Shown here one piece after another: positions 5,630-8,248 of a stretch of DNA of 44,436 nt. Within the stretch, counting starts at the first letter, position 1. Every line of letters begins with the position of its first letter. Source of the DNA: a virus. The position numbers were made by a program, and so were the translations under genes. The notes below the pieces were generated by a model that was not told the DNA's origin, did not search any database, and saw nothing but the letters and a program-made list of their open reading frames with translations. The DNA lies in the IMG/VR virus record IMGVR_UViG_3300040801_004946; one strand, given 5' to 3'.

Positions 5630-6199
5630 TTGCTGATGTCTGAAAAAATATATGAATTAGAACGAAAGTTTTTACTTCGTCGTATGCCTGAATCTGTGGA
5701 ATCCAGAAAAAATGTTCAACATATTTTACAACCATATGATTATAATTCGACTGACAGAGCTCGAATGTTGATTGATTCTGAAACTGAAGACGTTAAATTC
5801 TATTGGACAGAAAAAAAACCAACTGAACATGATTCTGATTGTATTTGTTCAGAAGATGAACAGGAAATAACTGTTCAGGAATTTTGTGATTACCTTAAAC
5901 GTGCTACACACTATGTAATGAAAGATAGAATTACATATATTGACGATGAAGGTTATACTTGGTGTTTCGATTTATTTGGAACATCAATGACTCTGATCGC
6001 AGAAGTTGAAGTTGTAGTTTCAGAAGGTGAAAATGTTGAGGAAGAATTAAAATATCTTAAAAATGTTGATATTCCTAAAGATGTTTGGGATGAAGTTTTG
6101 CTTGAAGTTACCGATAAAATAGCATTTAAGTCAAAAAATTTGGCTATTGAATTAAAGGATGAAGAAAGAGAACAATTTATTAAGGATCTTTTAGAATAA
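5630..6199 (+). CDS. CYTH (triphosphate tunnel metalloenzyme / CyaB-like) domain protein, tentative
   Basis: The N-terminal KIYELERKFLL resembles the EIE[RK]KFLV signature that opens CYTH domains. Acidic residues recur through the body. Confidence 0.4.
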   Translation: MLMSEKIYELERKFLLRRMPESVESRKNVQHILQPYDYNSTDRARMLIDSETEDVKFYWTEKKPTEHDSDCICSEDEQEITVQEFCDYLKRATHYVMKDRITYIDDEGYTWCFDLFGTSMTLIAEVEVVVSEGENVEEELKYLKNVDIPKDVWDEVLLEVTDKIAFKSKNLAIELKDEEREQFIKDLLE

Positions 6200-6946
6200 A
6201 TCAAATTTAGCTAGATCATCAACATTTGGAACCTCTCTTTTAATATCAGTGTACATTAATTGTTTTGTGTACTTATTGAGTCCAGTGATAAAATCATCTG
6301 CTACTTTGTATAATTCATCGTCTAAAAAGTCGGAGTTTACTACACTGGTTTCACCTTCATCTTCTATTTCGCCATCACCTCGACATTGATCACATGTTTC
6401 TTGTCTACCACCATATCCATATCCATCATCTTCATCATCTTCCTCTTCGTAATAACCACTACCTCCACACCATTCACAATCTCTAAATGCTGGTTCAATA
6501 TCAAATTTCTGCATTACATTTAATACTTCTTGGCCGTTTGTAATTTTATTAGCATAATCATATGTTTTAAATAATTCTACCATTTCATCATGAATAGGTT
6601 TTTCAGCTGTTCCACGACTAAATGCGCCTCCTTCTCGTGAACCGTCATATCCATTATCCGAATATTGAGTATGACCGCCATTATAAACTTGACCAATATA
6701 ATTTTTTAACATTACAATTAATGCATATTCGGGGGTATAATTTTCTTTGAAAAAATTATACATATCCATTTTTGTCCATTCATGATTTTCTTTCCATTTC
6801 TTATATCCTATTTCTGCCAAATGCCAAATGAAAGCTTCATCCTTATTTTTTTTTATTGCTTCTTTATATTCATTATACAACTCTTTCCAAGCATCAAACT
6901 TATTTGTTGTTTCATTAAATAGATTGAATGACTTAATGTTTTTCAT
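6191..6946 (-). CDS. Hypothetical protein with a CxxCGGSG...CDQCRGDG zinc-finger-like pair, ending in ...LAKFDLF
   Basis: The track ORF is 6191-6979. I prefer the internal Met (MKNIKSF) at 6946, which removes the overlap with the upstream gene's stop at 6948. The protein has a Gly/Asp/Glu-rich low-complexity region. Confidence 0.45.
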   Translation of the reverse strand: MKNIKSFNLFNETTNKFDAWKELYNEYKEAIKKNKDEAFIWHLAEIGYKKWKENHEWTKMDMYNFFKENYTPEYALIVMLKNYIGQVYNGGHTQYSDNGYDGSREGGAFSRGTAEKPIHDEMVELFKTYDYANKITNGQEVLNVMQKFDIEPAFRDCEWCGGSGYYEEEDDEDDGYGYGGRQETCDQCRGDGEIEDEGETSVVNSDFLDDELYKVADDFITGLNKYTKQLMYTDIKREVPNVDDLAKFDLF

Positions 6947-6947
6947 T

Positions 6948-7547
6948 TTATAGGTCAAATTTTTTGAATGTATCAACACTTTGGGGGGTTATGCCTCTAC
7001 TTTTTAATTCTTCAACAGGCAACATTTCAATATTTAAAAGATGTTTTACTCCTCTTGTTAAAAATAAATGTATTAATTTATATGATTTTTGAATATCATG
7101 TGCGATGTCTTTCATATCTACAACATTTCCGTCACCAGCAAATTCTTTGAAAATCGTTCGATCTGCTAAAATTGCTTTACTAATGTATTTTGAATTTAAA
7201 ACAACAACTGCATTAAGTGTATGATATGATAAAAATTGTAGTAAATTTTCTGGATCAGCTTCAACTAAATTATGATTATCATCTTTATTCATTTGTCTAA
7301 TTGTAGTGTCAAATACCGTTATCCAACTTGCTCCACGACTATGACTAACTTGACCTCTTAATTTTCCAGTCTGAAAACTCGCTGTGCATCTAAAATAAAA
7401 TTTATCGCCTCGATATATGAATCCAGCCATAATATTAGCTGTTATTGCTTTGTCTATTTCAAAGCCCCAATACTCAGCAAAAGATTGAATTAATTCTTTT
7501 TTAGTGTGTTTCTCAGCATCAGTAGAATAATATTCAAAATATTTCAT
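6948..7547 (-). CDS. Hypothetical protein ending in ...FKKFDL
   Basis: The track ORF runs to 7628, but the first 27 codons are hydrophobic junk lying over the divergent gene. The start is probably MKYFEYYST at 7547. Confidence 0.45.
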   Translation of the reverse strand: MKYFEYYSTDAEKHTKKELIQSFAEYWGFEIDKAITANIMAGFIYRGDKFYFRCTASFQTGKLRGQVSHSRGASWITVFDTTIRQMNKDDNHNLVEADPENLLQFLSYHTLNAVVVLNSKYISKAILADRTIFKEFAGDGNVVDMKDIAHDIQKSYKLIHLFLTRGVKHLLNIEMLPVEELKSRGITPQSVDTFKKFDL

Positions 7548-7582
7548 ATATTTATATATAAAACAAATCAAAACATAATACA

Positions 7583-8248
7583 ATGGCAGATGAACAATTA
7601 TCGCCTCAAGAAATGCCGGATTTAACAAAGTTAACGTCCAAACATATGTCGCTAATTAAAAGGATGAATCGTGATCAGAAAAGAGATATAGTTATCAAAT
7701 ATGGAAATATTGATCCTGATAAACACAACATGATTCTTAGTGCATTTTCGGATGATGAACTCAATCATTTAATTGAAGTTTTAATAAGAAGAAAACAATC
7801 GGGTTGGGTAAGCGCGACATTAAAAAAAATATTTGATACTTTTGTTAAGGGCGAAGATTATTTTATTTTTAAAGGTTATTATGCTGGAGATACACCAGGT
7901 GGTAAAGGATCTAAAACTGCTGTTGAAGACTTATTAGGAACGTTGATTGATATTAATTTTATTATTCCAGAGAAAAAGAGTTTCGTAAAGGTAACTCCTA
8001 AAGTTACCGCGGGACTTTCAAGATGGCAAGAACCAGAATGGAAAGGAAAGAGAACTAATTATTATGAGAAAGAAGAGGATATTCCAATAGATCCAATTGA
8101 TGGAATAACTGGTCATAATAGATATACATTTAGAAACGTGAAAAAAACTGCATATATGTTTATAGCTAATTTACCTGAAGAGGAGCAATCAAGATTAAAA
8201 CAAATGCATGGAGCATTGAGACATTTAAAAACTTTTGATTTATTCTAA
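7583..8248 (+). CDS. Hypothetical protein ending in ...LKTFDLF
   Basis: A 221-aa ORF divergent from the two genes above. All three share the C-terminal motif. Confidence 0.45.
   Translation: MADEQLSPQEMPDLTKLTSKHMSLIKRMNRDQKRDIVIKYGNIDPDKHNMILSAFSDDELNHLIEVLIRRKQSGWVSATLKKIFDTFVKGEDYFIFKGYYAGDTPGGKGSKTAVEDLLGTLIDINFIIPEKKSFVKVTPKVTAGLSRWQEPEWKGKRTNYYEKEEDIPIDPIDGITGHNRYTFRNVKKTAYMFIANLPEEEQSRLKQMHGALRHLKTFDLF

Follow-up and report, generated by a model that had tools for sequence, protein, structure and literature searches.

Short terminal peptides act as addresses in several assembly systems: bacteriophage T4 packs anti-defence proteins into its head by them, and encapsulins load their cargo by them. 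The cargo-loading peptides of encapsulins are conserved C-terminal tags on unrelated cargo proteins that are encoded beside the shell gene, and they dock inside a protein cage; the eukaryotic vault tag, the INT domain of PARP4, is a domain of ~160 amino acids and not a peptide. The unrelated T7 proteins gp2.5 and gp4 share an acidic C-terminal tail with an essential terminal Phe and have one partner for it. The capsid-targeting sequence (CTS) of T4 directs internal head proteins into the scaffolding core, and it is the sole common feature of the T-even internal proteins, which are diverse anti-defence proteins (PMC3012670). T4 gp43, gp55, and gp33 carry clamp tails, in which an interchangeable hydrophobic-acidic C-terminal peptide follows a variable linker and binds one hub (PMC2988020). 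Here we describe a C-terminal tail, K-x-FDL(F), on three adjacent genes (A, B, and C) of a 44,436-bp viral stretch, IMG/VR record IMGVR_UViG_3300040801_004946, which is an entire Joint Genome Institute (JGI) contig and is hereafter called the window. By analogy, this tail is most likely a new variant among the terminal-address systems represented by the T4 CTS, the encapsulin loading peptides, and the clamp tails.

A first-pass annotation of the window had remarked on the ending shared by three neighbouring genes, two on the minus strand and one divergent, and all three tails were found:

6191-6946, minus strand: gene A, 251 amino acids from its likely ATG start, ending ...EVPNVDDLAKFDLF before the stop (LAKFDLF)
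6194-6226, minus strand: gene A tail, NVDDLAKFDLF, residues 241-251; stop codon at 6191-6193
6948-7547, minus strand: gene B, 199 amino acids from the ATG at 7547, ending ...PQSVDTFKKFDL before the stop (FKKFDL)
6951-6980, minus strand: gene B tail, SVDTFKKFDL; stop codon at 6948-6950
7583-8248, plus strand: gene C, 221 amino acids, ending ...GALRHLKTFDLF before the stop (LKTFDLF)
8216-8245, plus strand: gene C tail, LRHLKTFDLF; stop codon at 8246-8248

Genes B and A lie on the same strand, with the gene B stop 1 nt before the gene A start, and gene C diverges from gene B across a 35-bp spacer. All counts were made on the 51 plausible genes of the window, the other 48 of which lack an FDL(F) ending. 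Chance was estimated with random tails drawn from the window's own proteome, counting 3-mers that were terminal or set back by one residue. Three adjacent genes with a common terminal 3-mer arose with P = 6e-5, and any three of the 51 genes with a common 3-mer with P = 0.026; the genome-wide test that the annotation had proposed extended over this contig. The likeness between A and B reached upstream of FDL, over 9-10 residues (NVDDLAKFDLF versus SVDTFKKFDL). The tail codons of A and C were identical (TTTGATTTATTCTAA, with 15 nucleotides in common), while those of gene B differed (TTT GAC CTA TAA). Compared with its sole relative, an 81%-identical orthologue on ENA contig L001, gene B had three changes in its last 10 codons, all of them synonymous. 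Since codons differ between the tails and the gene B orthologue shows synonymous change only, the comparison points to selection on the tail at the protein level. The shared ending is genuine and not a product of chance, and its conservation is at the protein level.

The stops of genes A and C lie in overlaps with convergent open reading frames (ORFs):

6191-6199, both strands: 9-bp overlap TTAGAATAA/TTATTCTAA of the gene A stop (Leu-Phe-stop) with the stop (Leu-Glu-stop) of the convergent ORF at 5630-6199
8240-8248, both strands: identical 9-bp overlap of the gene C stop (Leu-Phe-stop) with the stop (Leu-Glu-stop) of the convergent ORF at 8240-8890

The 9-mer TTATTCTAA makes up the last two codons and the stop of both A and C. 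A third copy, at 8950-8958, is the stop of the tail-fibre gene. The 9-mer was not over-represented in the window (3 copies observed versus 2.5 expected), and a DNA-level motif such as a terminator or promoter was rejected because gene B uses other codons and the 9-mer is not enriched. A collection scan for TTTGATTTATTYTAA returned at least 120 single matches and was uninformative, and the literature on FDLF and on DPYGEE, the tail of a related lineage described below, yielded nothing relevant.

The three carriers had been called otherwise unrelated, and indeed no family match was common to A, B, and C. Gene A is built from a CTS-like leader, a DMP19-like helical domain, two DnaJ-type CxxCxGxG zinc knuckles, a linker, and the tail. 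Its family comprised 222 representatives, with a signature in which an invariant NGGHxQY..NGY is followed by CxxCxGxG zinc knuckles in variable number. The AlphaFold2 (AF2) model of gene A was confident (predicted local distance difference test, pLDDT, 88.5 overall) and had a helical, DMP19-like fold outside the zinc knuckles. DMP19, a DNA-mimic protein of Neisseria (PDB 3wur), is 15% identical to gene A in sequence, and gene A, unlike DMP19, adds the leader, the DnaJ-type zinc knuckles, and the tail. The DnaJ-like CxxCxGxG pair that had been noticed in one carrier is present, but its match to the DnaJ-type zinc knuckle reached 21.6 bits against a Pfam cut-off of 32.7, gene A has no J domain, and the remainder of this protein is DMP19-like; the protein is not a DnaJ/Hsp40 member, its likeness being confined to the zinc knuckles.

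The core of the gene A family ended near residue 231 (alignment A2), and the window protein went on for ~20 residues with YTDIKREVPNVDDLAKFDLF. None of the ~110 gene A homologues inspected ended in FDLF, and AF2 predicted a break at residues 239-242 before a short helix (residues 243-248), at a pLDDT of 50-65. Since the core ends before the tail, the homologues lack FDLF, and the model confidence is low in this region, the gene A tail is an add-on module, probably flexible, that lies outside the fold. Across the family, the C-terminal extension had a median of 11 amino acids in 18 leader-bearing members versus 2 amino acids in 100 members without a leader, and the leader-bearing members carried tails of their own lineages, for example ..QKYNL. 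Separately, a conserved extra C-terminal domain of ~70 amino acids replaces the short tail in some gene A homologues (P0015, P0020, P0026, P0047, P0048, P0053, P0061, P0063, P0071, P0072, and P0078), with the pattern ..KLVGTDGNAFAI.G....AL+..G........EA.SGDY..LL.T...YCEV.

Genes B and C had no match in Pfam, PHROG, NCBIfam, or the PDB, and only near-identical fragments were found among 5.8 billion proteins. The sole relative of gene C was a 99%-identical fragment, and its AF2 model, made without an alignment, was unusable (pLDDT 37). Relatives of A, B, and C were sought in viral contigs, in GenBank phages by tblastn, and in JGI metagenome contigs, and near-identical fragments were all that came up. 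The contig itself had no exact DNA match in a search of IMG/VR.

The window also encodes a homologue of the major vault protein (MVP), the end of which lies 2.7 kb from the gene A stop:

918-3497, plus strand: MVP-like protein of 859 amino acids (Pfam MVP_shoulder, 8.8e-27, plus Vault_3), a candidate receptor or cage

This protein had more than 6000 homologues, many of them on contigs of 200-500 kb, and its matches in GenBank phages, at 47% identity, came from the huge phages LR756500 (462 kb) and LR756501 (735 kb). LR756500 was fetched whole, and the C-termini of ~600 ORFs were scanned for over-represented k-mers without a prior. FGFF/GFFD was over-represented at these C-termini (P about 2e-12), and 15 proteins carried NADDFG[FLM][FLI](DN). 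All 15 occurrences of the NADDFG motif in the LR756500 proteome were 0-4 residues from the C-terminus, and the codons of the tail varied between copies. By regular expression, 11 of the 15 proteins started with MKYIKEYEEFxxE (hypergeometric P = 3e-13), and by eye 13 of the 15 did. The LR756500 tails are thus strictly C-terminal and statistically tied to a leader, a leader-plus-tail architecture that appears to be undescribed. BLAST and Pfam revealed no kinship among the 15 proteins except for one leucine-rich-repeat (LRR) paralogue family. Six of the genes sit side by side at 11.6-17.0 kb, and the MVP gene, at 20.9-23.4 kb, is ~4 kb from them; the other nine are elsewhere in the genome:

LR756500, loci L131-L140, at 11601-17016, 124308, 180972, 197835, 198758, 313382, 322613, 331856, 411169, and 461001: NADDFG-tail genes

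The LR756500 leader aligned with the T4 CTS (..EYEEFILE versus ..TYQEFIAE); T4 IPIII and IPII start with MKTYQEFIAE, and T4 IPI starts with MKTFKEF. In the window, leaders of this kind were seen on three neighbouring genes:

6911-6946, minus strand: gene A leader MKNIKSFNLFNE, T4 CTS-like, ending in Phi-x-E (F-N-E)
7512-7547, minus strand: gene B leader MKYFEYYSTDAE (MKYFEYY...), more weakly CTS-like
5200-5577, plus strand: neighbouring ORF with a CTS-like leader MKKFKNLKTYEMF and no FDLF tail, ending YGELDDPGVA

We scored these leaders with a matrix built from the LR756500 leaders, against the 51 N-termini of the window and against internal 13-mers. The gene A leader was the best of the 51 N-termini at 3.84 bits, a score reached by 0.06% of internal 13-mers, and the gene B leader ranked third of 51 without a gap and scored 2.95 bits with a one-residue gap. 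The leader of the ORF at 5200 scored -15 even with a gap, so its resemblance is by eye only. A T4-type CTS leader (MK.Y.EF..E, ~10-13 amino acids) was thus found in A, weakly in B, and not in C. The leaders end in F-[IL]-x-E in LR756500 and in F-N-E in gene A, and from the likeness to the T4 CTS we infer that the leader would act as a capsid-targeting sequence.

The LR756501/L002 lineage had a tail of its own, DPYGEE.W, on several proteins, at or near the C-terminus and no more than 5-6 kb from the MVP gene; the corresponding distances are 2.7 kb in the window and ~4 kb in LR756500. Unrelated proteins encoded near the MVP and DnaK genes repeatedly carry DPYGEE[DENSI]W, in most cases at the very C-terminus:

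L002, 3417-3863, 3877-4578, 17158-17712, and 18204-19895: DPYGEE[DENSI]W proteins
L142 (LR756501), 11314-11850 and 44452-46983: DPYGEE[DENSI]W proteins

The idea put forward in the first-pass annotation, that a C-terminal tag shared by unrelated proteins serves as a common sorting or recognition signal, gains support from the 15 NADDFG proteins of LR756500 and from the DPYGEE.W lineage. LR756502 had no MVP by tblastn, and in its first 350 kb (L144-L150) 77 proteins carried the leader MKHLK.Y(K/N)IFES (P = 6e-42), presumably a very large capsid-targeted set. Among these 77 proteins no tail was shared (the best 3-mer had P about 1e-3), whereas the same test applied to LR756500 gave P = 5e-22; T4 internal proteins likewise have no shared tail. 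Because tails occur near MVP in three MVP lineages and the leader proteins in the first 350 kb of the MVP-less LR756502 share none, their co-occurrence weakly favours MVP as the receptor. As a separate observation, 18 small LR756502 proteins without the leader end in R-D-x-K-L-N-E-L-G-I-like sequences, which may reflect paralogy and are not the same phenomenon as the leader-plus-tail sets.

Set beside the described systems, these proteins resemble those addressed by the T4 CTS in that a short terminal peptide is the sole common feature of diverse, fast-evolving, often anti-defence proteins (IPI, IPII, IPIII, and Alt in T4) and in that the leaders of A, B, and LR756500 resemble MKTYQEFIAE and end in Phi-x-E (PMC3012670). 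They differ in that the T4 CTS is N-terminal and removed by gp21, whereas the tag described here is a second, C-terminal one that is absent from the T4 internal proteins, and in that gene C has the tail without the leader. A short conserved C-terminal peptide on unrelated proteins is what would be expected of cage cargo, as in encapsulins, but an MVP homologue, rather than an HK97-fold encapsulin, would form the shell, and loading is putative. The T7 gp2.5 and gp4 tails are strongly acidic and belong to the replisome, whereas the window tails contain Lys and are on capsid-targeting-type proteins.

We regard it as roughly an even call that K-x-FDL(F) is a docking tag, C-terminal and specific to its lineage, by which proteins are directed to a phage-encoded assembly, either the head interior or an MVP cage. 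The tail would be a short linear docking, or sorting, peptide that otherwise unrelated proteins of a huge phage, T4-related and MVP-encoding, display on a flexible linker, and it would mark its carriers for one common phage-encoded receptor within the particle-assembly pathway. Gene A at least, and B probably, would be cargo of the internal-head-protein type with a T4-like capsid-targeting leader, whose Phi-x-E end would be a site of the kind cut by a gp21-type prohead protease. A and B would then be packed into the head and afterwards probably ejected into the host, and the DMP19-like DNA-mimic fold of gene A would fit an anti-defence payload. To the leader the tail would add a second address, for a site inside the prohead or for the vault-like shell of MVP, whose gene is 2.7 kb away. 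Since the tails differ completely between related phages, a co-evolving phage-encoded receptor fits better than a host hub or degron.

As for the receptor, MVP is a tentative candidate, well short of probable, and another head component is a slightly less likely one; what remains falls outside the docking-tag explanation. The most specific form of the proposal, in which K-x-FDLF, NADDFGFFDN (LR756500), and DPYGEE.W (LR756501) are all cargo-loading peptides of a vault-like MVP cage, is doubtful in our estimate. In that form, the tails would sort a subset of the leader-bearing effectors into a compartment made of protein, perhaps an inner body within the giant head, for delivery to the host. Virion loading, one of the roles raised in the first-pass annotation, has indirect support from the CTS-like leaders (A, B, and 11-13 of the 15 LR756500 proteins) and from the portal and gp21-type protease of relatives. 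Loading into the MVP cage, which it had also raised, is weakly favoured by the co-occurrence; in favour of two further roles it had listed, loading into a contractile injection system and a degron, nothing was found.

Several points weigh against a docking tag for particle assembly. The CTS alone suffices for packaging in T4 (PMC3012670), which leaves the need for a second signal unexplained, and the proposed location of the tail proteins in the particle is read from sequence. The leader of gene B is weak, with 3.5% of internal 13-mers scoring equally, and gene C has no CTS-like leader. This phage provides only three tail cases, on one 44-kb contig, and the convergent-stop overlap constrains the final two residues (LF) of A and C, so that this part of their endings is not fully independent evidence. 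When a position-specific scoring matrix built from the LR756500 tails was run against the 51 window tails, gene A scored with p about 0.009 and gene B with p about 0.06, and gene C ranked 8 of 51; homology between the two sets of tails is suggestive for A alone, not for B or C, and is not claimed. With regard to MVP, the correlation sets three MVP lineages against one partly analysed MVP-less genome plus T4, the gene sets of the relatives are crude ORF calls, and in the 482-kb relative L127, whose MVP is 52% identical, the 10 kb to each side of the MVP gene contained no shared tail.

Our first lead was that the tail is a sliding-clamp-binding motif that tethers A, B, and C to a phage gp45-type or host beta clamp. 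The bacterial clamp consensus is QL[SD]LF, and FDLF is like its positions 2-5 as well as the ..LFDMFDF of RB69. The clade of the phage is related to T4, L127 has a sigma-70-like protein with the end ..DLFDIL, and the T4 precedent (gp43 ends SLDFLFG and gp55 ends SLDFLYEAND) has the same anatomy, with a hydrophobic-acidic peptide at the extreme C-terminus of unrelated proteins after a divergent linker (PMC2988020). However, the T4 SLDFL[FY] and the window K/T-FDL(F) have only their hydrophobic-acidic character in common, the tails have no counterpart of the Gln in the bacterial motif, gene B lacks a terminal Phe, and gene A combines a DNA-mimic fold with a capsid-targeting-type leader. The lead was downgraded by LR756500, where leader-bearing, LRR-type, and orphan proteins, rather than replication or transcription proteins, carry the tail, and where the gp43-like polymerase pieces end ..SSSLF (the last piece), ..KRKSA, and ..SIYNE, none with NADDFG; the window contig has no polymerase gene. 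Clamp motifs are conserved, whereas the tails differ completely between related lineages, and on the whole we consider clamp binding very improbable. Apart from the window tails, the sigma-70-like protein of L127 (21215-22243, minus strand, ending ..GTDLFDIL) and a PDDEXK-like protein of the same relative (18390-19334, minus strand, ending ..NFGDPLLF) have hydrophobic-acidic ends that could be genuine clamp-binding tails.

A role in the host is unlikely, though less so than clamp binding: the tail would be a ligand of a host hub, a degron (for ClpXP, Lon, or similar) that times early or ejected proteins, or an amphipathic membrane-targeting helix. The C-terminal, exposed, low-confidence position of the tail in the AF2 model, its amphipathic L/F-x-x-F-x-L-F spacing, and the effector-like payloads (the DNA mimic of gene A and the LRR proteins of LR756500) are all consistent with such a role. 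Yet hubs and proteases are conserved, whereas FDLF, NADDFGFFDN, and DPYGEE.W of related phages are unrelated, a pattern more in keeping with co-evolution with a phage partner that evolves fast; moreover, the tail has no likeness to known degrons such as the LAA of ssrA, an invariant Asp in the hydrophobic face is unusual for membrane-targeting helices, and the 77 leader proteins of LR756502 do without a shared tail. Improbable, in turn, is that the tails have no shared function and are a relic of local 3'-end duplication or recombination, reinforced by the 9-bp overlap TTATTCTAA at two convergent junctions. The adjacency of A, B, and C, the 15 identical nucleotides of A and C, the use of one 9-mer by both to overlap a convergent Leu-Glu-stop, and the chance-level count of that 9-mer in the window would all fit a relic. 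Gene B, in contrast, encodes FDL with other codons and without an overlap, its tail is kept under synonymous change in L001, its likeness to A spans 9-10 residues, and a strictly C-terminal tail on unrelated proteins recurs in LR756500 (P about 1e-12).

The source of the window is a T4-related huge phage that encodes an MVP homologue. The contig has a G+C content of 30% and contains, besides the MVP homologue, a tail fibre with an Mtd_N domain, a 20-kb glycan-synthesis island, and a bacterial-type DnaK. Phage MVPs have been reported earlier (bioRxiv 10.1101/2023.11.10.566534). In L130 (Logan SRR28147555, 1-7015), the lineage closest to the window, MVP is 58% identical and the gene order is gp21-like protease, T4-type portal, MVP, and gp2; this position of MVP inside the head module suggests a role in the head or particle. 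LR756500 encodes a T4-type terminase, sheath, and portal, a gp21-like protease, and a split gp43-like polymerase, so that a gp21-type prohead protease and a T4-type portal are found in both relatives, though not on the 44-kb window contig. The split polymerase (at least three ORFs) and a gp44-like clamp loader in two parts lie at 248783-263903 of LR756500, presumably interrupted by introns, inteins, or endonuclease genes. A eukaryotic giant-virus origin, to which MVP, Hsp70, and the glycosyltransferases had pointed, was rejected because the DnaK is bacterial in type and the relatives, with their T4-type portal, terminase, and sheath, are tailed phages. Other features of the window are as follows:

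3602-4039, plus strand: gene right after MVP, with a signal-peptide-like start MKTIVTLLFLFFSLSVYAQ
4039-4929, plus strand: gene of 296 amino acids, with an equal-length counterpart after the MVP gene in L002 and LR756501
13283-36890: glycan-modification island with an AlgH-like gene, many glycosyltransferases (GT2, GT25, WbsX, RgpF), methyltransferases, a sulfotransferase-like gene, a RIO-like kinase, a UDP-GlcNAc 2-epimerase, and a dTDP-sugar epimerase, and with a NUMOD3 endonuclease gene inserted within it
13879-14409, plus strand: orphan of 176 amino acids without a family match, with an acidic end ..EDNDNDEHYNDLPF
39702-41657, minus strand: full-length DnaK of bacterial/mitochondrial type (Hsp70 Pfam E = 1e-255), ending ..EFEEVK

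The equal-length counterparts suggest a conserved MVP module that includes the 296-amino-acid gene at 4039-4929. No J-domain protein was found on the window contig to accompany the DnaK. The C-terminal tip of bacterial SSB is D-D-D-I-P-F, and the end of the orphan at 13879-14409 is so closely like it that it may be a case of SSB-tail mimicry.

A second address of this kind, C-terminal and lineage-specific, on such proteins of huge phages would define probable particle-borne effectors by sequence alone, 3 here and 15 in LR756500, and would offer a handle, through peptide baits and tag swaps, for a search for the receptor. Leader-plus-tail rules would also be usable to annotate hundreds of orphan genes of huge phages or to load foreign proteins into particles. 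If MVP were the receptor, the cargo of vault-type cages, a long-standing question, would become directly testable in a prokaryotic system, and, if the tails are indeed the loading peptides of an MVP cage, they would constitute the first defined cargo code for vault-family proteins together with a function for these proteins in a virus.

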